A stretch of 64,000 nt of DNA from Prorocentrum cordatum (taxonomy: Eukaryota). The stretch covers positions 1-64,000 of the forward strand of contig CAUYUJ010000316.1 of assembly GCA_963575745.1 (NCBI GenBank), given 5' to 3'. The notes under the pieces are model-generated. The model made no database searches and was not told where the DNA came from. It was given only the letters and a program-made list of their open reading frames with translations. Made by a program: the position numbers and the translations under genes. Below, piece by piece: positions 2,318 through 64,000 of the stretch (the first letter of the stretch is position 1; each line of letters starts with the position of its first letter).

Positions 2318-3309
2318 GGGAAGAAATAAGGCGAGTTGGGTCAGGTGAATGATGTGAGCCGATCTCTAAGCAAATGCGTGATCGAGACAGCTCTCCTCCC
2401 CCTCCTCCTCCTCCTCCTCCTCCTCCTCCTCCTCCTCCTCACCTTCTCCCCCTCCTCCTCCTCCTCCGCCGCCTCCTCCTCCTCCCCCTCCACCTCCTCC
2501 TCCTCCGCCTCCTCCTCCTTCCCCTCCTTTCTCCTCCTCCTCCCTCCTCCACCTCATCCTTCTCCTCCTTTTCCTTCTCCCCTTTCTCATCCTCCTCCTC
2601 CTCCTCCTCCTTCTCCTCCTCCAAAAACCCCGTGGTGACCCCGAATCCCCATTGACTCACCACGCGGCGTGGCACCACACAGTTTGGGAGCCCACGACGA
2701 TCCTCCTTGTGAGGGGCAAGGTGGGGACTGGCATAGAGGGGGGGAAACATCGACCTGGAATCGGCGATACATCGCCGATAGATCGGCGATGGGCCCCCAT
2801 GGTGAATCCGCACATTCTTGAGCGGGGTCGGATTTCTCATCGGCGATCAATGGGCGATTGGGGGGCGATGCATCCCACCCTACGGCAGGTTCGTGTCGTG
2901 TCGACCCAGCCGCTGCTTCATCACACCGCGGGGATCGTTCAGCCTTGAACGATCGGCCGATTCCGAAACGCCCGATCGTTCAATATCGACCGATGCTGCT
3001 TCGCCAACGGCGTTCAACGTAGAAGGCCGGCGGCGGGGTCACCGTGGGTCGACACGACGCGAACCTGCCGTATGCCTCCTGTTCCACCCCCCCCGGTCGT
3101 TACCCTTAGGTCTGGCGTGTCCCCCTGCAGGCGGATATTGGACGAAAAATAAAAAGAATACCCAAGTAATATTCCGAAAGACGTGCAAAAACAGTCAAAG
3201 AATCGTCCCCAGACTAGTTCTGACTATGTCTGACTTTTCCCCGTGCAGAAGGACAGGCCCGACTTGACCCCATCTTTACCCCGGCCCTGGCAGGAGGCAG
3301 CTGGGGACT

Positions 3310-11118: not shown

Positions 11119-11140
11119 CTTGAGCCAAAATGGCTACGGA
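11119..11140 (-). other. Intact dinoflagellate spliced leader (DinoSL) at LINE 5' end
   Basis: Minus strand reads TCCGTAGCCATTTTGGCTCAAG, a 22/22 match to DCCGTAGCCATTTTGGCTCAAG. Confidence 0.97.
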
Positions 11141-14265: not shown

Positions 14266-14287
14266 TCCGTATCCATTTTGGCTCAAG
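14266..14287 (+). other. DinoSL relic at the 5' end of the second LINE
   Basis: TCCGTATCCATTTTGGCTCAAG, 21/22 match, just after a (CCT)n tract. Confidence 0.93.
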
Positions 14288-21000: not shown

Positions 21001-21488
21001 GAACTCATGAAGCTAAGTGTTAAATGTGTAAAACGTGTTCTACAAGTGTTTCAAACATGCTTATGAGGGCGATCGTTTTCACGCAGACGCTTCTATATCA
21101 TGCGGTGTGCAGCCAGACGAGATAACGTCATCTCACGAACGCTTTGCAACGGCAGAGCCTCTGAAAGCTTCTCCAGAGACCCCAGACAAGGTCAGGGACA
21201 GCAGGGTTGGGCAAAGAGAGTCACATAAAATTGGGAGGGAAAACTTTGAGCAAAAATGGGCCGCGGTCGCTTCCCACTCTCGCAGTTTCCACCCGCCCTC
21301 ATTCCAGTCAAAGACAGTGCCATGAGGGCGATCGTTTTCACGCAGACGCTTCTATATCATGCGGTGTGCAGCCAGACGAGATAACGTCATCTCACGAACG
21401 CTTTGCAACGGCAGAGCCTCTGAAAGCTTCTCCAGAGACCCAAGACCACTTTGTGCCCCGGGCCCATGAATGCCCTGGGATCCTTAGA

Positions 21489-25568: not shown

Positions 25569-25698
25569 CTTGAAAAAGAAGGTGAAGCTCAAGTAGGCGC
25601 CGAACGCGAGCCTGAGCTGAAACGCTGCGCCCGAAAGCGCTGCCCCTCTGAGGTAGAAGCGACTAGCAGCGGGGTCCCTGCCAGTCGCCGTCGCACAG

Positions 25699-27195
25699 CT
25701 AAGCGTCTGCCGCGCCTCCAGCCCCCTTCTTGGCGGCTGCCTTTGCCTTCGGGTTGGCGGTGGCTGCACGCACTTCTTGGGCCTTCTGGCGCTGCTTCTC
25801 AATCTCGGCTTTCTCTTTGGCACGGGTGGCCACGTGAGCGGTGAGGGCTGGGGCGATCCCCGCCGTCCGCTGCTGATGGCCTGACCACAGTTCCTCATCC
25901 TCAAAGCGCCCCTCTCCTGGACCACGACTGGCCGCGTCCAACAGCAGCTGCATCCTCCTCGCCAGCACCTCGAACGCGGCCAGCGACGCGAGGTTGAGCT
26001 GATCGTAGCACCCGGCGTGCTCCAGCAGGCGGCACATCGCCTGGAGCTCGTACGCGAGGCGGTCCGAAGCGGCGATGCGGTTCTCGACGAGATACTTGTG
26101 ATACCACTGCATCGGGGAGCCTCCAGTCCTCTCAATGTTCTTCGCCATCCACAGCATGGTGCGCGGGCCCTCGACGGGCCAGTCCTCATAGAAGCTCTCG
26201 TGCATCTTGGCGACGGCATCCTTCCACGAGCGGAACCTCTCGCCCTGCTCGTCGTACTGCACGGACAGGGTCCTGGCGTCGTCAAGGTCCAGCTCAGGCG
26301 GCGCGCTCGCAGGGCCAGGCAGAGGAGGCACAGGTGCCGCAGGCCCGTCGCGGGCCATGAGCGCGGCAATGTCCTTCCAGCGCCTGGCCCCAAAGCCAGG
26401 CACGTCGTCCACGTGGAGGCGGTAGAGCACCACGACGTCCTCGGCGGTCCGACCCGCGGCAGGGGTCGCGGCGACGCTCACCAGCATCCGATCCCCCAGC
26501 CTGCGAGCGTCCTTCTCGGCAAGGATCGTCGCGACGGTGAACTCGGTGCCGAGAGGGAACGAGGAGCTCGGCTCGCCAACGACCCAGCGGTAGTCCTTCT
26601 CGTCCTCCACGATGGCGGTCGCCTCGGCGGCGACAGCCTCCTCTCGGGGTGGAGAGGTCTGGGTGCCCCCCTTGTCGTCGTCCTCGTCCTCGGGCGCATC
26701 CAGCACAATCGGTGGCGCCTTACCCCGCCCGCGGCGGGCAGGAGCACCTCCCAGCCGCCAGAAGTCCTCCAGCGCCAGCACGCGCCCGTCCCACTGCTGC
26801 GTGTGGAGCGGCGCGGGCAGTGGCACCTCGCCAGCGGCGAGCGCCTGGCGCGCCAAGTGCCGAGCCTCGATCACCTTCTCGCGGAGCTCCCGGGCGCCGA
26901 TCTCACGTCGGAACCGGTACCTCGGCGAGGCCACGTGCCGAGGAACCCCGCCACCAGGTGCCAGCACGATGAACTCCTCGATGTCAGGGCCTGACAGACA
27001 TTCAGGCATCTGGTCGCCGTCAGGGGACTCCGTGATCCACTCCTCGAAGCTCACCGGCCACAGGCACACGCGCTCGTGCAGGAGGTCCTCCCCGGCGTCC
27101 ATGTAGCGCACCAGGATCCTACTGCCCGGCATCAGCCCTCTCAATGACGCCGCCACCCCGGAGGGCAGGGCGCCTGATCCTGCTGCCACCAGCAT
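25699..27195 (-). CDS. gag-like ORF of the YR retrotransposon
   Basis: About 500 aa, protein-like (HERVCLWP, WPVEGPR, YDQLNLASLAAFE), in the gag position upstream of pol. First ATG at 27195. Confidence 0.75.
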   Translation of the reverse strand: MLVAAGSGALPSGVAASLRGLMPGSRILVRYMDAGEDLLHERVCLWPVSFEEWITESPDGDQMPECLSGPDIEEFIVLAPGGGVPRHVASPRYRFRREIGARELREKVIEARHLARQALAAGEVPLPAPLHTQQWDGRVLALEDFWRLGGAPARRGRGKAPPIVLDAPEDEDDDKGGTQTSPPREEAVAAEATAIVEDEKDYRWVVGEPSSSFPLGTEFTVATILAEKDARRLGDRMLVSVAATPAAGRTAEDVVVLYRLHVDDVPGFGARRWKDIAALMARDGPAAPVPPLPGPASAPPELDLDDARTLSVQYDEQGERFRSWKDAVAKMHESFYEDWPVEGPRTMLWMAKNIERTGGSPMQWYHKYLVENRIAASDRLAYELQAMCRLLEHAGCYDQLNLASLAAFEVLARRMQLLLDAASRGPGEGRFEDEELWSGHQQRTAGIAPALTAHVATRAKEKAEIEKQRQKAQEVRAATANPKAKAAAKKGAGGAADA

Positions 27196-27526
27196 CCTGA
27201 CGGGCTCCGCGTCGCGCGCCGGCACAGAAGCCGCCGACCGCCGCCACCACCACGTTGAACACGACGGCCGCGATGAGCAGCGCCCACGGCGGCCCCTCCG
27301 GGCAGCTCAGCGTCGGGCACGCCGGGCAGACCGCCTCCGGACACGTCACCTCCGGGCAGGTCAGGTTGGGACAGGCAGGGCCGGGCGGACAGGGCGGTGG
27401 GAGCGGGCAGGGCTCTGACTGACCGCCGGTCGAGGTCCAACTGGCCACCACGCCGGCCACCGCACCGCGGCCTATCTCCCGCGCCCCCGACTGGAGGAGG
27501 TCGCTCAGATAGTCTGGGAGCACCAT
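27119..27526 (-). CDS. Small Cys/Pro-repeat membrane protein (ORF0 of the YR element)
   Basis: ATG about 20 bp inside repeat A1. Repeated CP(x3)CP units followed by hydrophobic WALLIAAVVFNVVVAAVGGFCAG and a basic tail. Confidence 0.6.
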   Translation of the reverse strand: MVLPDYLSDLLQSGAREIGRGAVAGVVASWTSTGGQSEPCPLPPPCPPGPACPNLTCPEVTCPEAVCPACPTLSCPEGPPWALLIAAVVFNVVVAAVGGFCAGARRGARQDAGGSRIRRPALRGGGVIERADAGQ

Positions 27527-29110
27527 CCAAGGTGCGACGCCTCAAAAACTTTGAGCAAAAATGGGCCGCGGTCGCTTCCCACTCTCGCAGTTTCCACCCG
27601 CCCTCATTCCAGTCAAAGACAGTGCCATACAGGTTAAAACATGTTCAACACATTTTTAGACATCTGGAAATGATTTGGCAGCATGCTTCCTCTCCATACA
27701 TCGACTTCCACAAGCGCCAAGCCCGGATGGACACGAGCAGGGACAAGAGCAGGTGCACGCCCCGAGGGGCGGCCCTCGCAGAGCTCGGCGGGGGCGCTGG
27801 AGCGCAGCAACTCACAGGTCGTAACACGTGATTGCTTCACGACCCAGAATCACGGCCCTCGTGCCAGGCACCGCCGAGGACGCGGCTTCCCCCACCTCCT
27901 CCTCCTCCTCCTCCTCCTCCTCCTCGTCCTGCTCCTCCTCCTCCTCCTCCTCCTCCTCCTCCTCCTCCTCCTCCTCCTCCTCCTCCACCTCCTCCTGCTC
28001 CGACCCAGGATCTGCAGCATTGGCTCCGCTGGGTGCCAGCCACCATCTAGCAGCGTGGCCACCACCGCTCGAAGAGGCCCTCTAACCCCAGTCAACCTGC
28101 GGACGCCGAGCTCGAGGATGCGTGATCGGATCTTCCGCCAAGCTTGAACAACCCTGCCGTGCATGTCCGGGGGGCCTCTGCCACGATGGGAGGATGAGGC
28201 GGAGGAGGAAGAGGAGGAGGAGGAGAAGGAGGGGGAGGGGGAGGAGCAGGGAGAGGCGTGGGGGGGAGGGGGGGGGAGGAGGACGGGGCGAGGGGGAGGA
28301 AGGGGATGGGGAAGGAGGAGGAGGGCGAGGAGGAGGAGGAGGAGGAGGAGGAAGAGGAGGAGGCAGGAGAGGAGGAGGAGGAGGAAAACGGGGACGAGAG
28401 GGGAGGAGGAGCGGAAAAGGAGGAGGCAGGGGAGGGGGAAGAGGAGGAAGAGGGGCAGGGACGATCTCCCCCCCCCCCCCAGCGTCGGCCGCCGGGGTGC
28501 CACGCCTGGTCCCGCACCTGCCTGTGCAGCGATGCCCAGTAGTCCACGGACTGCGGGTCCAGCAGGTTCGAGGCCTGGGCACGTGTTTTCTTTTGTTGCG
28601 GGCCACCACGGGGTGGTGGGGGATCCCTCCGTCCTTGATCCCTCCTCCTGCTCCTCCTCCCCCTCCTCCTCCTCTTCTCCTCCTTTTCCCCCCTCCTGCG
28701 CCCTCCTCCTCCCCCCTCCTCCCCCCTCCTCCTCCCTCCTCGCCCTCCCTCCTGCTCCCCACTCTCTTCCCACCCTCCTCCACTCGGGGGGAGGGGGGGC
28801 AAGCATCGGAGCTCGAGGCTCCAGGCCCGTGAGCGTTGCTCCTTGCTCACCCTTCCTGGGGGGGGGGCCCTCGGGAGATTCCCTCGTCGTCAGCGTCGCA
28901 GCGCGCGAGAGGTGCGTCTTGAAAGGCCGCGGTCCCCGCGAGGAGGAGGAGGCGGAGGAAGACGTGCCATCCTCCTCCCCCTCCGCCTCCTCCGCCTCCT
29001 CCCCCTCCGCCCCCTCCTCCTCCTCCTCCTCCGCCTCCTCCTCCTCCGCCTCCTCCGCTCCCTCCTCCTCCTCCTCCTCCTCCTCCTCCTCCTCCTCCTC
29101 CTCCTCCTCC

Positions 29111-46645: not shown

Positions 46646-47555
46646 AGCCACCTCCCTCGTTCCCTTAGTAACTTTCACCCAGCGGGCGAAAAATCTTACT
46701 GGACGCTAATCACCCTCGCGGACGGTGTTTCGCACTGCCCTTGCCTTTCTGCGTCCCCGGCGTGTGATATTGAGTAATTGTAGGAGGGGGAGGAGCTAGG
46801 GGGAGGAGGAGGAGGAGGAGGGAGGGGGGAGGAGGAGGAGGAGGAGGAGGAGGAGGAGGAGGTGGGAGAAGGGAGGAGGAGGTGGAGGAGGAGGGAGGAG
46901 GAAGAGGTGGAGCAGGGGGCCCCTGGGGAGGAGGAGGAGGAAAAGGAGGAGGCAGGAGGGCGGAACGAGGACGACCCCCCCAGAGACGAGGGAGGGGATG
47001 CAAGGGCGATCCGATCGCCGAGGGCCAGCCGGGGCGGCGGCGGCGGCAGGCGGACGGGCCGGCGTTCCCTCCCTCATCCCTCCCACCCTCCACCCTCCCT
47101 CCCTCCCTCCCTCCCCCCTCCGACCCTCCCTCTCTTGAGGTTTCCGGGAGTCACCGGAAGTTCTGGTCTCTCCCTCCTCCCTCCCTCCCTCCTCCCTCCC
47201 TCCCTCCCTCCACTCTCCGACCCCCCTCTCCGTTCCTCCCCCTCATTGGGTGCTAGAGTTTCCGGAGATTTCCGGAAGTCTCCGGAGATTCTGGAAGTGC
47301 ACAGAAACGTCCAAAACCATCGACGGTCGATCCTCCAACCTCCTCGCGATGATTACATTACCTTGCAGAAGAAGCCGCGCAGAAGCGAGCGGCACCAATC
47401 TCTCATTCGCCCCGGTGGCCCTTGCCACCTCCACGTCCTCGGCCCAAGAGTTCGCACGACTACTAACGAGGCTGGCGCAGGGTGTCTGCACGGCTGAATT
47501 CTAAGGGCTCCTCTTTCCCGTGGGGCCCCTGCTGAAAGTGCAGCCGGCTTCGACC

Positions 47556-50500
47556 TCACCCTTGCGTGGCGGGGGCGTCCTCCGGAGCCCCGACCGCGGG
47601 CGCCGTCTCGGTGGAGGCGGAATCCAAGGACTGGGGGGCCTCGGCCGAGGGGGGCTCCTCCTTCTTAACGACGGTGGAGGACTGGCCGAAGTTTGCGAAC
47701 AGGCTGGCTGGCGGCGGCGGCGCCGACGCCGACGCTGCGGCGGAACCGGAGCCCGAACCGCCAGCACAGTTCTTCGAGATGGCCTCCTCGATGTTGCAGA
47801 TGCACTCCAGAACCTTGGACTCCTCCTTCGTGGTGTACCTCTCCATGTGCGTCTTCAGCGTCCTCAGGCGCATAGCTGCGGTCCCGTCCTCGACGCATTG
47901 CACGCGCCAACCGAAGATGGGTTCATCCCCAATACCCATCTCGCATACCACGTAGCCCGCGGGGATGAACACCACAGAGTTGGGAGGCACGGTGCCCTTC
48001 ACGAAGCAACCAGCGTCATGCATCGCGGCCTCGACCTTCACAATCTCTGCCCCGCTAAGCTCCATCTCGAAGAAATCCTCTGCGATGTTGGAGACGGTGT
48101 TGGTCTTGCTCACCTCGACGTCGCCACCGTTGAGATTTCCCATGCAATCGTAGACGAACTCGTAAGGCGCGCACACAATCTCACGACTGCCCTTGTACTG
48201 GTAGCGGATGTTGCCGACGCAGTGGTGCTCGAAACCAACGGACATCATGTCTACGTTGCAGCCCCACTGGCTCAGTGGTGGGGATTGCTTCATCGCGATG
48301 TTGTCGGGGACGAAGGACATCAGCGCTGGCGCCAGCGTGGCAGATACGGTTGGGAGCACTGTGCACTGCACCTTCTTCCGCTGTTTGACTTGCTCTGTTC
48401 CTGGCATTTGCGCCATGAAAGTCGTAGTCGAGGTCTTCACGTGAGGCTTCAACGCAAGGCTCAGAAGCTCGTTCGCGTTCAGGACCACGTACGGCTTGGT
48501 CTTGTCGAGGGTGTTGTTGCGATGGGCCTCGGTGAGCTCCTCCAAATTTCCGAAGCGGCTCATCTTCTGGCAAAGCTCCACGAGCTGGCGGCCAGCGACG
48601 TCGCCCGTGGCGCCCGTGTTTTCCTGCGGCTGGGGTTGCAGAAAAGGCAGAGTCGCCTTCTGAGGCGCAGCGGCCGCCGTCCGCCCAGCCTGCCCGGCGC
48701 CGTTCGAACCTGTCCTCGCCCTCTTGCTGGCCGTGGCGGCGGCGGCGTTGTCGGCCTTGGTCTGAGCCCTGGGAGGGTGTAGTAAGAAGCATTTAGTTCA
48801 GTTTTCAGCTCTGAATCGGCTCTGAAGTCAGGAAAAAACTCCCCCCCTCCTCCTCCTCCATTTCCTCCTCCTCCTCCCTCCCTCCTTCCCTCTCCCTCCC
48901 TCCTCCTCCCTCCTCCTCCCTTTCCGTTTGAACTTCAAAAACATCTGCAAACCTTTGGATGATTGCGAACAACAATCGTTAAACAAGTGTGACCTCCTCT
49001 TCTGCGTCCGCGAAGTATCGACGGCCTTGGACAAGGCCTGCACGCCAGTCTTCACACGGTCCACCAGCTCCTTCGACTTTTTCACGGCGTCCATCACCTG
49101 AGCCTCGAATACCTTGAGGCTCTCCTCGTTCGCCTCGCAGATGTGGTACTCGGCCATCACCGACAAGATCACGAAGGGCTGGCACTCGTCGAGGTCCTGG
49201 ACAGGTAGCGTCTCGCCATCACGAATGAATTGCGCCTGGGCTTCCTGCCACTTCAGAAGAACAATGTGAGCAGACTTCATGTTCATCAGCGCGCGGTCTA
49301 CGACGGCCGGATCCTCGAGAACCTTCTTCGTGGCATTCGCCAGATAGTTCACGATCGTCCGGACGCTCGCTGCCCCCATCCAGCTCCTCACTTCCCGGCG
49401 TCCTTCTAGTGTCGCCCCGTCTCCTTGAGCTTCATCCCGCGGATCCCGCGCCTCGTTCAGGATGTCTTTGATGGCATCTGGGACGTTTGACTGATGTTCG
49501 GATGAAGTCTTCTTGAGAAAGTCCGCGGCCCTGGCGAGGGACGCGAATGTGCTCGATTCAGCCTTGACCTCCTTCTCGAGGTACGCGTCGTCTGGCTTCA
49601 AAGACAACGCCGTCAGGAGCCCCATCCTGGCCTGGGCTGTGGCGAGCTCGTCTTTGAAGTCGTCGGTCTCCGGTCCTGTCATCTTCTCCTTGACCTCCTT
49701 GTACTTCGTGCACACATCAGCCTCGAGCTTAGTCGCCACCTGAATAGCTGCGCCCAACTTGCGGCGGATCTTATTCAGGTTAGTTCCGAAATCGAACGTC
49801 GCTTTGCGCCGCTTGGCGCCGCCAGGACCAGTGCTGCCGCCAGGATTGTCTGTGGGGGACACCTCGGAAGAAGGAGCACCTGGAGGCCCTGCCAGCGGCG
49901 CCACTAGCGGCGCCAGGTCAGCCGCCTCCTCGTCCTCTCCCCATGCTGCCTCAGGCAAGGCCCCGAGCTGGCCATTCGACGGAAAGTGGCGCGTGCCGTC
50001 CGGGGCCGACAGCGTCATCCCGGCCGCCACCGCCTTCGCTTGCCCAAACATTGAATCGGCGTCGGCCTCGAGGAACTGCTTCTTGACATTGCCGCTGCGG
50101 ACAACCTCTGCTCTTTGCTCAATCTCCTTCTCTTTGACTTCGTAATTCTCCATCTCGATGCACATCCACTCGATTTTCTCCCCAGTGACGCGGTCGGTGG
50201 TGGTCGACTTGTGCTCTGGCTTGGTATTGCCCGCGACGTATTCCCACTCCAGCTTGCACCGATGCGCCGACCATCCGTACTCGGTTTTGCAGTGGTTGGC
50301 AAAACCGAAGAATGTCTTCCAAACTGCCTTTCCTCCAGTCACGTTCCTCTTGATGATAGCATCCTTCCTGAAAAACTGAATGGCGTTGAAAGAAGCAGTT
50401 TTTTGGCCCCGCCCTGCTGACTGTTTGACCGTGTGGGCCTGGGTAATCATCTGCAGGAACAGAGGAGAGAGCTCCTGCTTGGCTTTCGTGAACTCCTGCC

Positions 50501-50756
50501 ATTCTTCACCTCTACCTCCTGTTTGCTTTTTCGTCTCGTTGGTGACATTGTTGACGGTTTTCTTGTGCTCGGTGCAGAAGCTGCTCCCCTTCACCTTGAC
50601 GCAACCGCAACCGATGGCACATAAGTTTTCAGTTGCATTGGCAGGGGCCCTCTGACGGCGAGCGCCAGCCGGCGGTTGAGGTGGCGGAGGCACTCCACGA
50701 GCCTCGTCAAGCCCCTCAGGTTCGAACTGGAGCGCCTGCGGAACGTTGTCGCCCAT
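47556..50756 (-). CDS. ~991-aa protein: N-terminal C3H Zn finger, coiled coils, C-terminal JmjC/cupin-like beta-helix
   Basis: Exons 50756-48994 and 48768-47556 are joined in frame by a 225-bp GT-AG intron (AG|GTCACA...CCCAG|G). Motifs CAIGCGCVKVKGSSFCTEH, YQYKGSREIVCAP, TVPPNSVVFIPAGYVV. Start codon uncertain. Confidence 0.75.
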
Positions 50757-51457
50757 GACGGCAGGCGGCCCGGCCGAAGTTGTGCTGCGTAGTTGGTCGA
50801 ACAAAAGGACGCTCTCTGAGGGCAGCCCTCAGCAGCGTAACTGGCTGGCTTCTCGAGCTAAAATCCTACGCCGAGACGACGAATCGGACGACCAGTCGGC
50901 GCAGTGAGAGAAGGCAAGACCCTTGACCTTCCAATTGAGACCTTCGTGGACGTCGTTTGGCCAGCGCATGGCCAACAAGGCTGAGGATGCAGGGGCAGCC
51001 TTGCGGGATCCCTGCATCTTCGTTACAGTTTTCTCCGACCTGCTCCTCCTGATCTTTCCTACCACTCCTTCTCCCTCCCTCCCTCCCCCTCCTCTCTCCA
51101 ACCTCCAACCCTTCCTCATTCCTATCATCATCCTCTCAGGGTCCCTGGCTGCAGCCATACACAGAGAGCGTTTTTGGGGCTGGCAAAAATGGAAGGAAAC
51201 AGAAGTAGGAGGAGGAGAGGAGAAGGCGAAGGAGGGGGAGGGGGAGAAGGGTGAGGAGGGGGAGGGGGAGTATCAGGAGGAGGAGCAGGAGGAGGGGGAG
51301 GAGGGGGATGATTGGTTGTTGTTTGTTCGCTATCGCTACATCCTGGCACCGGGACCGACTCCACGCACAGCGCTGCACCCCATACTGTGAAAGCTCGGTT
51401 GGCCCCGGCGCCGGGCATAAATTTCTGGCCTTGCCAAGGCCCGAAGGCCTGAGGCCA

Positions 51458-53737
51458 TCAGTCTCCGCCCAACCCAGCAGCAGCCAAATCAGGCGTTCCG
51501 AATTGAAAACTCTTGCGCAAGGCCTTGGCCGGTTTATCTGGAGTGGCGACGCGCTTGCGGCACGAGGGAGGAGTGCTAAAAACCTCAGGAGTCTCAGGAG
51601 TACCCAAAGAAGTCGACTGAAGAGAGTCCTCAGTCTCCTCAAGGTTTGGGTCCTGGTCCGGGCTCAGCTTTTTAGCAAGCTCCTCGAGAATGGCTTCGTC
51701 CCCCACCCAGCGGACAGAGCCCAGCACGAAAAGGATGATGTACCCGATCGACGGCTCGTGCATAGCGTTCCCTGCAAGGTCTTTCAGTTCAGCCTCTGCC
51801 AAGGTGTCGAGGACATCTTGAAAGGAGCACCTGAAGGGGTGCCCCTCCTTCTGGTTCTCGAACACCGGCTCCCCCATCATGGCGAGGTGTTGCAGACCGC
51901 CTGCAATTTCATCGGTCGTCATGTTCACGAGCGTCCCGTGGTGACACAAGCAAGGGAGGAAACAACTCTTGCTCCCAAACTTTGGGCTCTGCTCCACATC
52001 AACAATGAAGCTGCCGTCGAAGCCCTGGTACTGTAGCATCTCGGCCTCATAGGCGCGCTTGTGGGTCATCGCATACGGGGGCAGGCATTTGCTCACCGGG
52101 ATGTGCTGGTGCGGCGCGAAACTGTTGCCTTGAGTTGCGGCCTTCTGCGACATCACCTCCCGAGTGTACTCGCGAGGCGCGTCCCAAACACACTGGGGTG
52201 AGGCAACAACTTTACGACCGAACATGCTGAAGAAGTCGTCCCACGAGCGCCCGAGGCAAACAACACCCTTCAGGGTTAGAATGGTGAACTGCCTTGGCCG
52301 CAGCATTGGGAAACCAAGATCCACTGGGGACATGACGGCATGCGTGATCCGCGAATGCCAGAGTGGCATGAAAGGAATGTGGCGAATTCAAGGGCTCCCT
52401 CGAGGGCGCGAAGTTATTCGCGCTTCGCGCTTCGCCGTCCTCCTTCCTCCTCCCCCTCCTCCTCGTCCTCCTCTTCTCCCCTTTGGGAGGGCGGCGCGAG
52501 GGCGCGAAGTTATTCGCGCTTCGCGCTTCGCGCAGCGCGAAGCGCGAACTTAGGAGCCCTTGCGAATTGTTCGCCTTCGAATGAGATAGCGATGGGTGGT
52601 GGTCGGCGGAATGGCGCAGCCATACGGATGTCGTAGACGTGCCCGAACTCCTCGTGCAACCAGCGCCGCGTACATGGGTCTGGAGTGATCTCATGAATCA
52701 CCACATGCGGGCGCTGATCTAGAACGAAGGCGACCCATACCTTCCATGCCCTCATCGAGACTCCGGCCGCTTTCTCTCTCTTGCCACGCCTGCTGACTTC
52801 CTTGCAGACGGTCCCGGCAGACCATATGGTCAAAGGGTCTCCGTCGCCGACATTGGTGCCCATCATCGCTGTGAGCGGAACTCCGGTGCTGTGGCACAGG
52901 CACGGAATGCGATCCTTGAAGATAGGCTCCTTGCTGGCCCGCATGACCACGCCCATCTCCTCGTAGGCCGCCTGCTTCACGTCATTGGCGGCCTCTTCTG
53001 CCGGCGTCAACGTGTCCAGTTGCTCGCGCATGTGATCCGTCAAGAGATCGTTCAAGTCGGAGACGACGTGCATGGGCCTGGAGTCCCCGGTGTGCGCCAT
53101 CAGCACCTTCTGAGCGCACTCCTTCTTCTCAATGGCCAGGCCAGTCTTCATCAGCGGGCGGCCGTGATGCGTCAACAACATGCGATTGTTGTCGAAGACG
53201 TGCTTGAGCTTCCCGAAGGCCGACATCGCCGTCCCCTTCCCGGCGTACTGCTCGTGTAGGAAGACACCGCGCTTCAGATTGAGCTTCAGCGCCATCATGA
53301 ATTCCTTGTTCCCCACAACGGCCTGAAGCGCAGGGGGCCAGGCATCAGGCTGCGCGGCTCTCTCTCTTAGCTAAGAATCGAAGAAAACGCGAATTCAGAC
53401 GTCGTCTGATCCCTGCACCCGCAAAACATATGGCGCCATGCCCCCTGAAAAAACATTGGGCACCGCTGGGGGTCGACTCGTTGCCCCCTGAAAAACATGT
53501 TGGGGCGGAGGCGTTTGTTTTGGTGAGAGCGCGCGATTCCTTCACCCCGCCCAACGCCTGATAGGCGCTGATCGGCCAGGCGAATATGTCCGTGGTGCTC
53601 GCGGGGCCGGGCAACAGGTGCTCGCGGTCATTCCACCAGTTCAGACTGCCCACCCGGTGAGAGCGAATCATCAGCTGGTGCACAGGTGGATCAACTGCAG
53701 CCGCCATCTGCCCATGGTTGCCTGTCTGGTCTGCCAT
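51458..53737 (-). CDS. C5 cytosine DNA methyltransferase (~587 aa), interrupted by a 281-bp insertion
   Basis: Segments 53737-53558, 53322-52630 and 52348-51458, with a GC-AG intron at 53557-53323. Motif I EQYAGKG, II IEKK, IV SAGTVCKEVSRRG, VI VIHEIT, VIII DLGFPMLRPR, X LAGNAM. Confidence 0.82.
52349..52629. mobile_element. 281-bp insertion (MITE-like or non-canonical intron) in the methyltransferase
   Basis: Flanked by a GAT duplication. Contains the IR CAAGGGCTCC/GGAGCCCTTG and a 35-bp direct repeat (52401-52435, 52497-52531). Removing it restores the frame (YD|ITHAVMSPVDLG). Confidence 0.65.
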
Positions 53738-54165
53738 GTAGGGCAAGCAAGATATTCCAATAACGAAGGTGAATCTCAGCTTCTGGGCAAAATGGCAGCG
53801 CTAGGAGGGCCGGAGAGGGTCGATATCCAAACTGGCCTTCAGCGATGCTTCAGTAGCCTCGGGGGTAAGAGTACCCCCAAAGAGGATGGATTTGAGGTTG
53901 AGGAGGACCTCAGGTGCCCGCGGCACACCGTCTCGCGAGGCCGCCCCCTGGAGAAGGGCGCCCTGCGGCCCAGGCCGCGACGCGCGAGGCGCGATTACCT
54001 CCGCGCGCCTCGGGGGGGGGACCTGCCCCAGGTCGCATCTTCGGCATCTTCCGGCCGCCGGTCTTGGGGCCATCTTGGAGTCCTCTTGGGGCCCTTTTGG
54101 GGCCCTCTTGGGCCCTCTTGGGGCCTTGGGGCCCTTTTGTGGAGCCCTACACCAGAAAACTGACA

Positions 54166-54874
54166 AAAACATTGAAAATCACCGAAAACCGCTGAAAACA
54201 GCGAAAACGGTGAAAAAACATTCGAAAATTTGAAAATCACCGAAAACCGCTGAAAACAGCGAAAACGGTGAAAAAACACTCGAAAATTTGAAAAACATTG
54301 AAAACCGCTGAAAACAGCGAAAACGGTTGAAAAAACAAAAAAAAAACAAAAAAACAAAAAAAATAAAAAAATGCGCGAAAAATTGTTTTCCAATGGAATT
54401 CATGCGAAACCGCCGGGGCGGAGTTTCGAGGAGTTTCGAGCTGCTCGAAACCGGTTTCGAGCTGCTCGAAACTGGAGCTCGAGCGCAGTCGCCGAACCTT
54501 AAGGTTTTCATGCTTTTAGAGGCCCCCCGCTCCCGGGAAATGTTTTGCCAAAACATTTCCCGGGAGCGGGGGGCCTCTAAAAGTATGAAAACCTTAAGGT
54601 TCGGCGACTGCGCTCGAGCTCCAGTTTCGAGCAGCTCGAAACCGGTTTCGAGCAGCTCGAAACTCCTCGAAACTCCGCCCCGGCGGTTTCGCATGAATTC
54701 CATTGGGAAACCAATTTTGGCGTTTTTTTTGTTTTTTTTTTTTTTTTGCTTTTTTTTTTTTGTTTTTTCAACCGTTTTCGCTGTTTTCAGCGGTTTTCAA
54801 TGTTTTTCAATTTTTCGAATGTTTTTTCACCGTTTTCGCTGTTTTCAGCGGTTTTCGGTGATTTTCAATGTTTT
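54166..54874. repeat. ~700-bp palindrome with a 1-nt loop at 54548
   Basis: Core arms 54390-54547 and 54549-54706 (158 bp, one G-T mismatch). Outer arms are A-tract/T-tract units, with one extra ~58-bp unit on the left. Confidence 0.97.
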
Positions 54875-55579
54875 CAATGCTTTTGTTTGTTTTCGGGTGG
54901 TTTCACCCCCCTGGGAGGGCCCCAAGACGGCTCCAAGAGGGCCCCCACGAGGAGGGGGAGACAGGATGAGACCCCAAGAGGGCCTCTAGAGGGTCCCAAG
55001 AGGGCACCAAGATGCCCCTGGCGATTTGGGGGTGCACCCCCAAATTGGGAAGCCTCCGTTGTTCAAGTGTGGTGCCCATCGGTTTGCTTGCATATTGATT
55101 TCGCATAGCAAAGACCATGTTTTTTCGCCCAAGCCGACGTGACAAAAATGTGCGGACGGCTCTCATCGGGAAACCCCGGGAGGAGGAGGGAGGAGCCTGT
55201 AACGGGCGACCCGCGCGGGTCACCCGGCACCTCTGGCACGGCGTGGGCCTTCCTGGCTCTGGCACGGCGTGGGCCTTCCTGGGCATCTCCCAGGCCCCGA
55301 AGACGGCTCCAAGACAGCCCCAAAGAGGCCCCAAGAGGGCAACAAAGGGGGGCCCTCCTGCCCGCTGACCTCCCTCCGCCCTAGGAAGAGGGGCAAGGGC
55401 ACGGCAGGGGGGCGGAGGGGGGCCAGCCCTCCTCCTCCTCCTCCTCCCTCCTCCTCCTCCTCCTCCTCCTCCTCCTCCTCCTCCTCCTCCTCCTCCTCCT
55501 CTCCTCCCTCCTCCCTCCTCCCTCGCCGCCCTTCTTTCCACGCCCTCTCTTCCTTCTCTCCTTTTTTATCCCAGTCTAA

Positions 55580-58500
55580 TTAAGAGCTGGAGCTCTGGCT
55601 ACCACTGCTAGAACTCGAGCTGTCACTGCCACTAGATGCGCTAGCAACCTTCCGCGACTTGGGGCCCCTGCCCCGTTTACATGCAGGCTGCTGCGATGAC
55701 GCAGTGATTTTCCGCTTCTGCCTTGCAGGAGGCCTTGGCTCATGATAAGTTGGATCAAGCCTACCGACCTCCAGCTCCTTCATGGTGGGCAAGCCAACGA
55801 ACAACACACTGTTGGGGATGTCCATGTGCACGTCTCTAGTGGCACAATCCATACACATGTTGAGCCACCGACAGCATGCCCTCTGAACGTTCAGATCTTG
55901 AGGGCCATTCACTTTGCCCCTGAAGCTAATAGTCCGCGTGCATCCCGTCCTTGGCTGCCCTGGCTTTTGGTGAGCACTCTGTCGGCAACATGTCGCCTTC
56001 CACGTGCTCGGAGGGATAAAAGCTACATAATGAGGGCCCCAGTAGAATGATTTCTCGTGTGGTGGATTTCGGGAGAAGCGTGTCGTAGCTGGGGTCTGAG
56101 TCTTGCGACTCTCGTGGCTGACGCGCGCCGTCGCCGCCGAGCGCGGGGCGGCGGGGGCGGCCCCCCCAAGGCACTCGTTCACAGCCTTCTCAAAGTCGAT
56201 AGCCCTCTTACTGGCACTGGCGCCCGCCTTGGCCTCGGCCTCGGGCTCAGCCGTTGGTCCAGGGTCCTTCGGCATCGGCTTGTCGAGCTTCTCTGGTCCA
56301 GGCTCGGACTCTGTCTCCTTGGGCTTGGGCGGCGGGCCCTCGCCGCATGGCGGCCCGAGCGGCGCAACGGGCGTCCATGTCTTAAGATCCTTGCTCTTGG
56401 GCTCGGCCTTGCCCGGCTCTGCAATAGTCGGCGGTTTCATTGTAAAGCCACCGTCGTCATCTACGGTAAGACGTTTTTGCTTCCTTGTCGGCGCAGTCAC
56501 GCCGATCTTGACCAGGAGGTCGTTGTAATAAGCCGAATCCCGGAAGTGCTCGATACACTCGATGCCATGGTCGCGAAGCTCTTGCCAGAATGCCAATGCC
56601 AACAAACACGCCCTGGAGGGCACTCCCGATGCCCTCCACCAGAAGACCTTGGGCATCTTCTCTTGGCTGATCATTGTGGGCGGAACTCTCTCGCGGAACT
56701 TTGGTATCTGGATAACCCACCCATCGTTGCGTATCTTCTCGATGAGCTCCCAATTGGTCATGTCCTCCAACGCCACGTCACTTCGGCCCTGAGTCACGGG
56801 CCTGGGATTAGACAGCGTGATGGAGCACCTAATCGACGAAGCCCCTTTCTCTGTGATCTGCCACGCTCGTCGTGTATCGCCATGCTCTTGGCGCGGCAAC
56901 TGTTTGACTGCGCCCTCTGATTGCAACTCCTCCAGCATCTCGTGAAGCTCGGCATGACTGTCGACCTCGATGTCAAGCTCCAGCGCTCGAGGTTCTTGCG
57001 AATCGTCTTTCGACTCCCAAGCCTGGGCGGCCATGCACGCTCCCAGCGCTGTAGACGCCCGCTTGCCGTCGACCTTCGAGTTCGATGTGGAGTAGGCCAA
57101 GCACGGGTCCCTGTCCCATATTGTGATTGATTGCACGTCCACGGTGTCATTGAGCATGTAAGCAACGCTCTCCCGCTTGCGGTGTTCGGCAGATGGTTGC
57201 AAGTCGATGGTGAGTTGCTCTTTTCTCGCATCCGAGGACGTGATATCATGAACGCAGACTGCCTTGGAGCGTACGGACAGGCCAGTGTCGAAGTCCGTGT
57301 GAGCCCTCTTCATCTTACTTGGATTCCTCTGTGTAATCCGAAAAGCGAAACACTTCGACTCTGGCTCCACAATCGCCTCTTGGGTCCCCTTGCAGCCAGT
57401 GCCAAGGCCATTCTGCATGAGATTCCCGTCATCCTGCTCGAACTCCAAGATCTCGGCACAGTCCAACTCGGCCATGATTTCTGCAAGCACCTCTGGTGGC
57501 AACTCAGCGTCACCACCAACGCCTACTTCAGTCATCTCGTCCACGAGCTCTACGTAGCAGGTACCCGGGTCTCTGACATTAGGTCGACTGAACAGTGGCT
57601 CGAAGATGGAGGCGCCAGTGGAGGAAATGCCAGGGCACACCACAGTGTAGAAGCTCCCCGGGCCTGCGGTATCTTCGAAGTGGGCGGCTTTCAGTTGGCG
57701 GAATACCTTACCCAAAACTTCCGAAATGTCAGCGTCACTATTCGTAGCAAATTTGCCGCCACCGTCGCTGCCGCCCTTGCCTCCTCCTGGGCCCCCAGTC
57801 GGGGGCGGCGGCGGCGGCCCGCCGCTGCCGCTGCCTCCGGGTCCATGTCCACCTCCGCTCGGGCCTGGCGAGCCGCCGCCGCCCGGGCCGCTGGCTCCGG
57901 GAGCTCCGTCGCCACCTGGCAGGTCTGGGCCCCCGCCGCCGCCGCCTCCTCCTGGCGGCTGACCCGGCCGCGTGAGCGTCACTCCCTGCACGTTGGCGTA
58001 CTGCGTCGGCGCGTCGCAGCGATAAACAACCTGATTCACAACAGAATGCGGGATCGTTGCGTCCAGTCTAACGCCATTGGTCGTTGCAACCAGATAACCT
58101 TGCACCAGCGGGTGGTTCATCAGGCCCAGACTCGCTGCCACGCTTCGCCGATCAGCGACGCCCTTGACGCAATCTACGAGCTCGTCAGCGAATTCCGCAT
58201 GCGCCTCAAGAATCTCGTTCTTCCGAAGGGTCAAGCTCGCGTAAGCTGGACTGTGGTTGTGGCAAATCCTCAAGCGTTGGCTCACATAAGCGTGAAGTCG
58301 TTCAACGCCGACCTCGAGGTTGGGGGTGAACAGGAATCCGTTGCGGTAGTGGCGAAGCTCTGGCAAGTGACATAAGTCGACCCCTCTGATAAACGTAAGA
58401 ACCTGTCGACGGAGCGCACCTGTGGGCTTCCAAAAGAAAACTTGCTCCTCCTCCTCTTCCTCATCCTCCTTCTCGCAATGCTCCCCATCATCCTTTTCGG

Positions 58501-61500
58501 TTTTTTTCCGTCCGTTTGGCCATGGACCTCCCAGGGACCCAGGACTGATTCCCTGTGCCCCCGCCAAAAAAGAGTGAGGTGAAAAGAGGGTGAGGAGGGG
58601 GTGAGGAGGTGGGAGGTGAAGGCGGAGGTGAAGGCGGAGGTGGAGGAGGTGAAAGAGTGGGTGAGGAGGGCGACCAACCTCCGATCCATTTTGGAATGGG
58701 AGCCCTGGGCGCCCGGCTCCAGCAACTCACGCGTGATAGCATGCATTCGAGTGCGCTGGTCCAGAGTGCACCGCTGATACTGCGCCACACATCTCGCCAT
58801 GCCAAGGCGCGCCCTCCGTTGGTCAACATGTCCGAGGACGCATAACTTCAATGGGAGAGCTTGCCAGGCATCCGTCTTCACCCGCAAGTGCAGCAACATA
58901 CGTTGCTTACCATACTCGAAGTCAAGCGCGAGGGTAGCCTTCTGCTGCTCAGAGATCCTGCGGCAATGCAAGAAGAGAAATTCCTGGCATGCCTGGTCCA
59001 CAGTTGCATCGAAAAATGCGTCCAAACCTCCATCGGCAATCTCGGGGCACCTTCTCCCGCGCATGGGGCACTGGCACTCAACGCCGTACCCATGATTGGC
59101 AAGCACCTCCTTGATGTGCTTGCTGTGACACCTGCATGACTGACACCACGCGCTCATGTGCGTAAGCACGCTGTTGAGGGAATGCAGCAAATGAAGGAAT
59201 GCCCAAAAGTAGTGAGATGACAGCGACACATCCACGGTACGTGCAATGGAGCCAACAGATTCGTACCTGGGGGACCGAGGGATCCAGATGCATGCGCTCG
59301 CTCCGCAAAGAGCCTTCCCCATTTGTGTCAGATCCCAAAGGCCCAAAACAACGCTGACCCAAACGGACCAAACTGAAACTGACCGAAATGGTCAACCCCC
59401 CCCAGAAGCAATTGGAACGCGAAATCCCTCGAGATGGAATGGCGCATGCATCTCGCCCCCTCGGTACTTGCCATCGCCATCGGCGTCGGCGAGACCAGCC
59501 CCGTCTCGCTCGGCCTCGCCCCGGCCGCGGTCCAGGAAGTTGACCAGATTCCAGGTGGAGCGGATCACCTGGGCGCGCGCGCGCGAGACAGGCAGACGAG
59601 ACCCCCGGAGGAGGAGGAGGCAGGAGCCGTGACCTCTTCCCTGTCGAGCAACCACGACGAGACGGTCTCCACAATGCCCCACGCTCGCCCGCCGTCGAAC
59701 GAGGGTGGACCAGAGCTGAACTTCCAGTGCAGCGCCTGTGGCACCAAGGCGGTGTTGTAGAGCTGCCTGTTATATGGAGCGTGGAAGAAAGAAACGACCT
59801 TAGACAGCGGCTCCTTCATTTCGCCCCAAGTGTCAAGGCTCGCCAGCAAGCCCTTGCACATATTGTCAACCAAGTGGAACGTTCCAGGAATGTACAAAGA
59901 CCTCAGGAATGAGATGCGACACCCAGCTTCTGCGTCCACGAATCCGTCGTCATCTGTCATGTGCATATCTTTCCAATATGGAAAAGCCTCGTCCACTGAG
60001 ATCTCCATTGTGTTGATGTCCATCTCGGTCCCCATATCTGCGCAGATGCCGACGACGCAAGATGCCAATTGAACTGAGCTCGCCCATGTGTCCGTCTCCA
60101 GGCGTAAGCTGTGGCACACCGCATGCATCTTTGCAGCCAGACTGCTCCTTCGGGTGCCTAGAGCCGTAGGTGGTAGAGTGTGCTGTACGATCTTGGAAGC
60201 AAGCTGCCATCTCAGGTCCTCGTGTACCTCGCAGTCGGCCGGTGTCTCCACTGCGTGTTGCATCATGCGACTGGCGACGTCGGCGCACTTGTCGAGATCG
60301 TCTCCAGAAACGACCTGCAGCTCGCACAACTCCCAATTGCGACCACCTTGGGGGCTGGAGTCGATCAGAGCAAATATTACAGGCCGAACATCGGCAGCGA
60401 GCAGCTTGGCATGGCGACGCCGGTTCATGATCATGAACGCCGCGTCGACGCAGAGGCGAGCGCGGGACGCCGTCGCTTCTGATATGGTAGCAGTTCCAGA
60501 TTCAACCATGGCCTTCAAACTACCGCGCCACACGGAAGGTAAAAGGCGGAGAGCCTGTCGAAGAGAAGTCTGTAGCGCACCAGCGGACCTCAAGTTGAAC
60601 GACAGAATAATACACTCTAACAGAAAACCAGCTCGGTACTGCACGAACTTCCCTAGCTCCTCGTTCCAGTCTCCCCTTCGGCATAACATGATAGACTGAT
60701 TGATTGCACGTTCTTCGCTGCACTCGTGGTCTGCTGCCCTGAGCCAATACACAATTCTCTCAAGCTCGATCCTGTCACCGGGTGAACCATGCACTATGCT
60801 GTTTGTCCATCGGACAAGGGCGTCAGCGATGTACCCCAGTTTGCCACTCCTCGATACCCCCGTCGAGTTCAAGGTGTCCAGGGCCTCAGTTCGGAGAGCG
60901 ACGTGGCGGTCCTTGCATTGGCTCCAGCGCTGCATGTTTCCAATGTCGTCTTTGATCCCGCGCATGTCACTGCTGATGTCTATCCTAACTCCAGGCGGTA
61001 ACGCAAGCAACTCCCACGCGCCAGAAACCACCAGCTTGGCCGCAAAGCAAGGCAACATCAATGTTGACGATGGAGCGGCACCGTGTACCAAGTTGTTGTT
61101 TGGAAAGTAGTCCCGCCAAGCACGAACTAGATCCCCCGCCCGTACCCCGTGGGACGTGTGTGCGGCGAGGGCCTGTTCAATACTGTATCTGGATAACCCA
61201 ACTATAGTTGTATTCATCGAGCAGCCTCCACGTGTGAATGAATTTACGTTCACATCCAGCTCAGCGGCGGCAAGCACGCGCCAGAAGCATGCCTGACCAG
61301 TGCAACCCATGGCGGCCATGACTGTTTTCTGTGAGAGCAGATGTATATCCATTTCGGACCTACATGCGCGATCCAACTTCAAGGCCACGAGCCCAACGAC
61401 CTTACCGTGAGCTTCAGCCCACATCCGCTGGCACATGTCCATAAAACTGGGCTGCTCTTCCCCGCCCCAATCACATAGGATGTCCAGCAATTGGGTCTGG

Positions 61501-61601
61501 AGGGTTTGCTTTGCAACTTTCGGAAGCCCGAGTTCGGGGCTTTGGTTTTCATCACGGAATCGCCCTGGAAGCCCCGACACCCAACACAACCTCACAGTCA
61601 T
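55580..61601 (-). CDS. ~1820-aa DDE (hAT-like) transposase, 4 exons
   Basis: Exons 61601-59634, 59568-59468, 59266-58713 and 58419-55580 total 5463 nt in frame, with introns GT-AG 65 bp, GT-AG 201 bp and GC-AG 293 bp. Candidate catalytic LIDSSPQ (D), CADMGTE (D), PGTFHL, RAWG, VERLHA (E). Also CQSCRCH, CPMRGRR and a C-terminal Cys/His cluster. Start codon inferred. Confidence 0.8.
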
Positions 61602-62007
61602 CCTATGGGCTGGGATCCCTGCAAAGGCCAAAATTGCTGCGTTGTGGCAGGGGCAGGGGAGGAGGAGGAGGAGGAAGGATGCACCTCGCCTGCGCCCTGC
61701 GACACCCCGGGCTCGCCCCTTCCATCGTCGTCGTCCTCCTCTGGGACCCACTGAGGCCCCGCGGAGGCCCAGAGTCACCGAACGCTCTCCGTCCAAAGCT
61801 TTTCACGGCGCGAGGGTGTCTGGGCTGGGGGGTCAAGCCGACCCCTCAAGGACCCATCCAGGGATGCTCCTGGGCTGAGAATCTCGAAGTGGATCCAGCC
61901 GCGGCGGCGACGAGGGCGCCCTGGGAGGCCCAAGTCCAGAAACCTCAGACCTCGGAGCATGACGACGACGACGCCGCCGCCGACGACGACGACGACGGCG
62001 GCGGCGG

Positions 62008-62039
<32 letters not shown>

Positions 62040-62391
62040 GCGACGGTGACCGGCGGGCCGCAAGCGTCGGAGGTCCCTGGCCCTGGCCCTGCCCCTCCTC
62101 CTCCCCCTCCTCCCTCCTACCCCTCCTCCTCCCCCTCCTCCCTCCTACCCCTCCCTGCCCCTCCTCCTCCTCCTCCCCCTCCTCCTCCTCCTCCTCCCTG
62201 CTCCTCCTCCCTGCTCCTCCTCCCTGCTCCTCCTCCCTGCTCCTCCTCCTCCCCGCACTTCATTTTCCTCCCTGCTCCTCCTTTTCTATCTGGCGATGCG
62301 CGATCCAGTGAATCCGCATGCCCCCGCCCGCTGGGTGAAAGTTACTACGTTCCCTCCTCATTTCCTCCTTCTCCCTCCCTCCTCCCCTTTC

Positions 62392-64000
<1,609 letters not shown>

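Follow-up and report, generated by a model that had tools for sequence, protein, structure and literature searches.

A likely hAT-like DNA transposon with a methyltransferase-like and a JmjC/cupin-like accessory gene in Prorocentrum cordatum

The stretch of Prorocentrum cordatum DNA that we analyzed, referred to here as the window, is 64,000 nucleotides (nt) long and corresponds to positions 1 to 64,000 of the forward strand of contig CAUYUJ010000316.1 (GenBank assembly GCA_963575745.1). Between positions 46658 and 62355 it holds a 15.7-kb insertion, and it is likely that this is an intact-looking, probably recent and autonomous cut-and-paste transposon of hAT-like type that carries two accessory genes. 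All of the element's large open frames lie on the minus strand. We built three gene models from reading frames and phase-matched splice signals, with collinear homologs as a further guide for gene 1, and obtained a hAT-like transposase of 1,809 amino acids (gene 1), a C5-DNA-methyltransferase-like protein of 512 amino acids (gene 2) and a protein of 991 amino acids (gene 3). Each model has an ATG and a stop codon with no internal stop, and the four predicted introns (302, 290, 302 and 225 nt) are all GT-AG with matching phases. An initial annotation, made by a model from the sequence and its open reading frames, had described three co-oriented genes with short introns, the largest for a transposase-like protein of about 1,820 residues, and the gene models bear out both points.

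The boundaries of the element were read directly. The octamer CGTTCCCT flanks it exactly, 8/8, as a target-site duplication (TSD) at 46658-46665 on the left and 62348-62355 on the right. The left terminal inverted repeat (TIR), TAGTAACTTTCACCCAGCGGGCG, occupies 46666-46688 (+), and its exact reverse complement, 23/23, is the right TIR at 62325-62347 (-). The repeat starts with TAGTA and is perfect over 23 bp, just as the initial annotation had reported for the TAG-starting repeats and the duplication. When up to three mismatches were allowed, the TIR matched two sites in the window and none in 100 dinucleotide-preserving shuffles. From repeat to repeat the element measures 15,682 bp. Beyond base 23 the two ends have in common just a short block, T(T/C)ACTGGA, which is followed by inverted low-complexity arrays, GGA-rich on the left (46786-46919) and CCT-rich on the right (62103-62236), with 72% complementarity over 134 nt. 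Arrays of this GGA-rich kind are also common outside the ends in the window, and we therefore give them no weight and regard their role as uncertain. Together this supports a bounded insertion with an 8-bp duplication, for which the expected empty site, the target without the insertion, is CTCCCTCGTTCCCTCCTCAT. The left neighbor of the element is a 43-nt tandem repeat (46434-46652) and the right neighbor is a long (CTA)n/(CTG)n/(CCA)n microsatellite block (62400-64000), which indicates that the insertion went into repetitive DNA.

We infer the mobility of the element from these ends, and the fact that a single copy was seen counts against it. When 153 proteins of the transposase family were compared with the window by tblastn, all 239 matches (239/239) fell inside the element, indicating one transposase copy in the window. 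A single copy is also what would be seen if the unit were immobile, that is, a domesticated or dead copy with preserved ends in a family of host genes derived from transposases, and the many long open frames among the family members would be possible in domesticated families too. We consider an immobile unit very unlikely, since a perfect 23/23 repeat together with an 8/8 duplication would not be expected to last around an old immobile copy, and since the catalytic residues described below are intact.

Gene 1 spans 55583..61601 on the minus strand, with exons at 61601-59569, 59266-58731 and 58440-55583 and a stop codon at 55580-55582. Its frame is uninterrupted over the 1,809 residues, across two GT-AG introns of matching phase that are also fixed by collinear homologs. 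A HMMER search of 1.84 billion representatives found a family of 1,100 representative clusters at E ≤ 1e-3 and 374 at E ≤ 1e-10, whereas a word-index protein search with gene 1 returned 4 relatives. Many members of the family are 1,000-1,840 residues long, and the long homologs are collinear with all three exons; for example, P0012, at 1,841 residues, spans the whole protein. P0012 and P0160 (1,885 residues) are full-length relatives encoded as single uninterrupted frames on ENA contigs of 7.4-7.6 kb, which would fit transcripts or intron-less copies. Related loci were found on three short metagenome contigs (L001, L002 and L003), and no locus with the transposase was found in viral contigs or prokaryote genomes.

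The closest structural relative of this family is Hermes, a hAT transposase. The initial annotation had proposed a Foldseek comparison of the spliced transposase with Hermes and Ac; we compared a model of the homolog P0019 (1,128 residues) with the PDB and transferred the result to the window protein by homology. P0019 is 30% identical to the window protein over residues 48-655 (E = 3e-57), and exons 2 and 3 also align (E = 1e-17 and 7e-21). The AlphaFold model, made with 150 aligned family sequences, reached a predicted local distance difference test score (pLDDT) of 87.7 and a predicted template modeling score (pTM) of 0.80. In a Foldseek search of the PDB, 11/11 of the matches listed at E ≤ 0.001 were Hermes, with E values from 1.7e-6 to 4.8e-4; the tally at this threshold is 12, as one more chain of an entry already in the list counts toward it. 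The first match after Hermes had an E of 0.1. Aligned to Hermes by VIA-align, the model gave a Z score of 16.2 and a root mean square deviation of 4.0 over 389 residues, pairing positions 396-1007 of the model with 142-609 of Hermes, a span that runs from the RNase H-like core through the entire helical insertion domain to the C-terminal helices. Retroviral integrase cores came next, at Z ≤ 7.7. A Foldseek-independent scan over 48,161 representative chains agreed, with Hermes as the sole chain at Z ≥ 8 (Z = 16.1) and an IS256-type transposase at Z 7.4. Hermes was thus the strongest match, and the model predicts that the RNase H-like DDE fold is present in the family.

The residues expected of a hAT transposase fall at fitting places in this fold. 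In the P0019 model, D438 lies on strand 1, D554 just past strand 4, a histidine after strand 5, and E972 on the helix that follows the insertion domain. The corresponding candidates for catalytic and signature residues in the gene 1 protein are D414, D522, H576, W641 and E903. Among 63 family members, and counting the sequences that cover each position, the first aspartate is conserved in 58/58, the second in 63/63, the histidine in 62/62, the tryptophan of the RW motif in 48/58 and the glutamate in 35/38. The hallmarks of hAT elements are an 8-bp TSD, short TIRs beginning (C/T)A(G), and the motif order D, D, (C/D)xxH, RW, E. Their excision proceeds by way of hairpins in the flanking DNA. The present element has the 8-bp TSD, a TIR that starts with TAG, a predicted Hermes-like core and the D-D-xxH-RW-E order, with the difference that the residue ahead of xxH in the family is G or P, not C or D. 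The family also has a conserved CxCH...C cluster near residue 720, and the C-terminal ~800 residues of gene 1 form an extension that is kept in the long homologs.

Several results pull away from a hAT assignment. Pfam found no family in the gene 1 exons, even at E ≤ 10, nor in the element's open reading frames at large (sets of 13 and 7), and at E ≤ 1e-3 it found a domain in 0/28 of the long homologs. The models for the hAT dimerization domain (Dimer_Tnp_hAT, PF05699) and the BED finger matched neither the window's open reading frames nor the 28 long homologs. A profile of the gene 1 family compared with PDB sequences gave nothing at E ≤ 1, Hermes included. The support from the fold is drawn from the homolog P0019 instead of the spliced protein of the window. 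Hermes, hobo and Ac prefer the target nTnnnnAn, and CGTTCCCT departs from it, having G in place of T (position 2) and C in place of A (position 7), although one site is a weak test. The hAT-like call of the initial annotation therefore stands by fold, TSD, TIR start and motif order, and fails in every sequence-level test for hAT.

These same results could indicate that the transposase belongs to another cut-and-paste superfamily, one without a solved structure, such as Novosib or an unnamed one, and that Hermes is merely the nearest structure available. Several superfamilies have no PDB structure, the identity to Hermes across the alignments of 389-391 residues is just 12-13%, no hAT sequence model matches, and with its conserved ~800-residue C-terminal extension the protein reaches roughly threefold the size usual for hAT. 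We judge this quite unlikely. The Hermes match at 142-609 runs through the core, the insertion domain and the C-terminal helices, and Hermes stands 8 Z units above every other chain; the motif order (D, D, xxH, RW, E), the TAG start and the duplication length of 8 bp also fit hAT. The 8-bp duplication is shared more widely, being made by Zisupton/KDZ and Novosib transposons as well. A KDZ/Zisupton identity for gene 1 was considered and dropped, as no KDZ Pfam model matched the window's open reading frames or the 28 homologs and the predicted fold is Hermes-like. For Novosib, the portion of 10.1101/2021.09.26.461848 available to us gives only counts. The term hAT-like for gene 1 is thus supported by the modeled fold, the end sequence and the length of the duplication, with no hAT sequence model behind it, and we describe gene 1 as structurally related to hAT and as probably forming a deep branch of the hAT lineage.

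Set beside the known hAT elements (Hermes, Ac, hobo and Tol2; Hermes structures PDB 2bw3, 4d1q and 8edg), the element has in common the 8-bp TSD, the (C/T)AG TIRs, a predicted DDE core split by a helical insertion domain, and the motif order. It differs in the size of the transposase, which is roughly 600-800 residues in hAT and 1,809 here, in a BED finger and hAT dimerization domain that Pfam does not detect, in the added CxCH...C cluster and C-terminal extension, and in its own length of 15.7 kb with three genes.

Gene 2 (51461..53298, minus strand) has exons at 53298-52626 and 52323-51461, separated by a 302-nt GT-AG intron, and its product appears to be a very divergent C5-METHYLTRANSFERASE homolog. 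Two metagenomic proteins, P0154 and P0155, are 48% and 47% identical to it (E = 1.6e-57 and 1.7e-53) and retain AGT(V/T)C.E.S, HEITP, RPRQ and AGNA.HEP. More broadly, three homologs with 45-49% identity to one another all have the cysteine, the glutamate, the RxR and the GNA. When exon 1 was searched by language-model features, 29/30 matches fell in the C5-methylase set (PF00145), with a score of 0.93. When aligned by profile (hhalign) with E. coli Dcm plus seven C5-methyltransferases of phages, the gene 2 family matched over 104 columns with a P value of 2.9e-4 and a probability of 40%, pairing (V/T)C with the catalytic PC of motif IV, HEI with the ENV of motif VI, and RPRQ with the RxR of motif VIII. 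In a looser profile alignment motif X also pairs, in collinear order. The hhalign score was 37.7, as opposed to at most 22.5 in all 62 controls (2 reversed and 60 column-shuffled). These comparisons of sequences and profiles support the homology.

Other results make gene 2 a less secure methyltransferase. The PF00145 hidden Markov model (HMM) had no match at E ≤ 10 in either gene 2 exon or in P0154, P0155 or P0158, in a search for which E. coli Dcm served as positive control (E = 3.9e-77). Searches of PHROGs and NCBIfam with gene 2 gave insignificant rows only, the best being a DNA-methyltransferase PHROG at E = 0.22 over motifs IV-VI. Motif IV reads (V/T)C, not PC, and motif VI reads EIT, not ENV. 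With the spliced window protein as the master sequence the hhalign match was weaker (P = 0.0068), and AlphaFold modeling of P0154 from six sequences gave a pLDDT of 32.6 and no usable fold. A PDB sequence search returned nothing for gene 2 exon 1 or for the gene 2 family profile. The initial annotation had called this gene a C5 DNA methyltransferase; the profile homology and the aligned cysteine, glutamate and RxR agree with that call, and the missing Pfam DNA_methylase match does not.

It follows from these points that gene 2 might not be a DNA cytosine methyltransferase at all, and could instead be a relic without activity or encode an enzyme for RNA or some other substrate. The motif IV without its usual proline, the EIT of motif VI, the lack of a library HMM match and the uninformative fold attempt would all suit that explanation, as would the position of motif I, where a YAGKG resembling it lies ~140 residues ahead of motif IV, with an insertion between the two, and is unpaired in the profile alignment. 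We find it rather unlikely, since the cysteine, glutamate, RxR and GNA are kept in three homologs and the profile match pairs exactly these motifs while exceeding 62/62 of the controls. Divergent homology to the C5-methyltransferases is the reading that we carry forward.

The intron of gene 2 is a further irregularity. P0154 is continuous across it and implies non-canonical boundaries, 52626|52345, and a protein of 519 residues, which tells against the canonical model. The canonical GT-AG pair (52626|52323) lies 22 nt beyond the boundary implied by P0154 and costs seven codons. On either side of the 281-nt piece defined by P0154 (52346-52626) stands the trinucleotide ATC as a direct repeat, and inside the piece are a direct repeat of 35 nt and an inverted repeat. 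The piece may have been inserted in the manner of an introner, a type of sequence that dinoflagellates are known to have (PMC11453091). We also considered whether this interruption makes gene 2 a pseudogene, which it may not, as a phase-compatible GT-AG pair exists.

Gene 3 (47559..50756, minus strand) has exons at 50756-48994 and 48768-47559 and a 225-nt GT-AG intron. A Cys/His cluster at the N terminus and a JmjC/cupin-like domain at the C terminus (about 47760-48575) are predicted, with a long helical stretch between them. The language-model feature search gave a best score of 0.95, with 19/30 matches in JmjC/Cupin_8 sets and 11/30 in clusters without a named family. In addition, residues 155-298 of the last exon align with L002:49-468 at 23% identity (E = 7e-6 in a 15-kb database), and this relative on L002 has sub-threshold Pfam matches to JmjC (E = 0.0067, 17.3 bits, cut-off 24) and Cupin_8 (E = 0.048). 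The gene 3 protein of the window had no JmjC or Cupin_8 Pfam match at E ≤ 10, and a PDB sequence search with the last exon found nothing. Two points are harder to square with a functional cargo gene. A word-index search with the gene 3 domain found no homolog, and the metal triad is missing. JmjC enzymes bind iron through a His-x-Asp/Glu...His triad, with positions as in FIH-type enzymes, and at these positions the window has H-H-C followed by V/C and L002 has R-Q-G followed by F. The loss of the triad residues in both makes a working iron center, and with it a demethylase or hydroxylase, unlikely, and the domain is probably not an enzyme, as judged from its residues. Of the Zn-finger/coiled-coil/JmjC-like protein described by the initial annotation, the JmjC/cupin-like end stands at the level of resemblance, lacking a Pfam match and the triad, and the sole trace of the zinc finger is the Cys/His cluster, with a Pfam E of 0.24.

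The next point to weigh is whether genes 2 and 3 belong to the element in more than position. A hint that the cargo is linked to the transposase family comes from L002, where the JmjC/cupin-like frame (L002:1-609, +) lies upstream of a transposase homolog (L002:1039-2121, +) on the same strand, the homolog being 29% identical to the transposase of the window. The cupin-like frame ends about 150-430 nt ahead of the transposase homolog, and this gap is too short for two element ends of the window's kind, which indicates that the gene order differs and that the association recurs. L001 and L003 are filled by the transposase, and L002 is the sole related locus with a flank. The linkage of the cargo to the transposase family thus comes from one short contig, which counts against the reading as accessory genes. 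Loci of gene 2 were not found in viral contigs or prokaryote genomes.

The alternative is that the element is hAT-like but picked up genes 2 and 3 from the host in a single event, by transduplication or nested insertion, and that they have no role in the element. hAT elements normally have a single gene, and the word-index searches found 2 relatives for gene 2 and 0 for gene 3, compared with 1,100 transposase clusters in the full HMMER search. The oddly bounded 281-nt interruption of gene 2 would also suit a capture, and so would the large palindrome that separates genes 1 and 2 (54067..55018, center 54548), which could mark a rearrangement. Its core arms, 54330-54547 and 54549-54766, are 218 nt long, 94% complementary and spaced by 1 nt, and its outer part consists of weaker mirrored repeats reaching about 54067-55018. 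Its building blocks, all in mirror order, are a unique core, tracts of poly-A/T, CTTGGGGCCCT repeats of 11 nt and three repeats of 58 nt in which GAAAAC(C/G)G is frequent. The initial annotation had noted a giant palindrome at this place, and the inverted-repeat analysis found it as described. There is no second copy in the 64-kb window, and either a foldback element that nested here or a hairpin with a regulatory role would be possible.

We regard a one-off capture as doubtful, though a serious contender. The same word-index method that gave 2 relatives for gene 2 gave just 4 for the transposase, so gene 2 is not obviously rarer than the close relatives of the transposase. A cupin-like relative of gene 3 adjoins a very distant transposase homolog on L002, both cargo frames are open, and gene 2 retains its catalytic motifs. 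An element with two accessory genes of its own is therefore the reading that we prefer.

If this is correct, the element could work as follows. On the best-supported interpretation, the transposase would bind the 23-bp TIRs and cut the element out through a DDE site formed by D414, D522 and E903, as hAT enzymes do, and reinsertion with an 8-bp staggered cut would give rise to the CGTTCCCT duplication. The gene 2 enzyme would modify cytosines within or near the element, and the cupin-like protein of gene 3 would act as a non-catalytic partner. This is the likeliest role for the cargo, though with the balance tipped a little against it. In Ac, which is a hAT element, the methylation of the ends governs how the transposase binds and which daughter chromatid becomes competent, and an element-borne methyltransferase could therefore time transposition; alternatively, it could mimic the default methylation of the host. 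CG methylation is pervasive in dinoflagellate genomes (PMC5890265). The initial annotation had gone further and proposed an epigenetic cassette that may write or modulate its own chromatin marks, which amounts to conjecture.

Accessory genes on DNA transposons have precedents elsewhere. Plant elements include MuDR with mudrB, CACTA with TnpA, and VANDAL21 with the anti-silencing factor VANC. They are likewise autonomous cut-and-paste elements with extra proteins, and the VANDAL factor acts on the element's own methylation, yet their superfamilies and accessory proteins are unrelated to the present ones. Fungal KDZ/Plavaka transposons, reportedly described by Iyer et al. in 2014, are said to be associated with TET/JBP dioxygenase genes. 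They too are large DNA transposons tied to genes for DNA-modification enzymes, but they have another transposase family (no KDZ Pfam match was found here) and a methylcytosine oxidase instead of a methyltransferase. Closer to the host, the DNA methyltransferase (DNMT) genes known from mobile elements are those of retrotransposons, namely SymbioLINE-Dnmt and SymbioDIRS-Dnmt3 of Symbiodinium and elements of Klebsormidium, as described by de Mendoza et al. (2018, PMC5890265). The Symbiodinium elements are likewise dinoflagellate mobile elements with a cytosine-methyltransferase-like gene, and their DNMTs are recognizable (Dnmt3-type or similar), whereas here the carrier is of the cut-and-paste type and the gene is a separate one that is invisible to Pfam. 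DNA transposons encoding a DNMT are mentioned in PMC5890265 just from marine viruses, with a citation to its reference 16. In the full-text literature outside subscription journals and Repbase we found no description of a hAT-like DNA transposon with a methyltransferase in dinoflagellates, and a term search of the text of a dinoflagellate genomics review (PMC11453091) showed the words hAT and transposase to be absent. The transposon class and the fold are known; what is new is a family of giant transposases that domain libraries miss, together with a cut-and-paste element whose cargo is methyltransferase-like and JmjC-like.

The rest of the window, which has a G+C content of ~62%, was surveyed as well. 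A 15-nt motif from the 3′ part of the dinoflagellate spliced leader has two exact copies and two copies with two mismatches in the window, as compared with ~0.16 expected, at 11119-11133 (-), 14273-14287 (+), 21245-21259 (-) and 27550-27564 (-). Such relics usually mark retroposed genes, and here they point to a dinoflagellate as the host, which makes the assumption of the initial annotation on this point reasonable. Among sequencing runs, 7 from 4 studies contained part of the window, in shares between 0.40 and 0.05 that we do not count as evidence, and no RNA run was listed. The degenerate copy at 27550 lies just upstream of two overlapping stop-free frames, 21492-26477 (-) of 1,662 residues and 25702-27306 (-) of 535 residues, neither of which has a Pfam domain; the region of the 1,662-residue frame may be another large gene or a retroposed element. 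Among 18 large frames outside the element, Pfam found just one weak coiled-coil match and a sub-threshold WW-domain match in the frame 1437-2438 (-) (E = 2.5e-5, 24.7 bits, cut-off 26.9).

DNA transposons of dinoflagellates are barely described, and the element provides a complete reference with ends, target duplication and gene models. For a protein family of at least 1,100 clusters that domain libraries do not see, it also provides a predicted fold and a likely job, and the transposase would be a candidate tool for the genetic manipulation of dinoflagellates, which are hard to transform. On the widest interpretation, the element would represent a deep, undescribed hAT branch with transposases of ~1,800 residues in dinoflagellates and perhaps other marine protists, whose conserved methyltransferase and JmjC-like genes would set or read the methylation of the element's own ends and so control when it moves or how it escapes silencing. 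We think it unlikely that all of this holds; if it did, a cut-and-paste transposon equipped with a DNA methyltransferase of its own would be known for the first time from a cellular eukaryote. Should the methyltransferase-like gene prove to be active and to be linked with the family, retrotransposons would no longer be alone in carrying cytosine methyltransferases, as cut-and-paste elements would do so too, and the question of why a parasite carries its host's silencing enzyme would become testable in a compact three-gene system.

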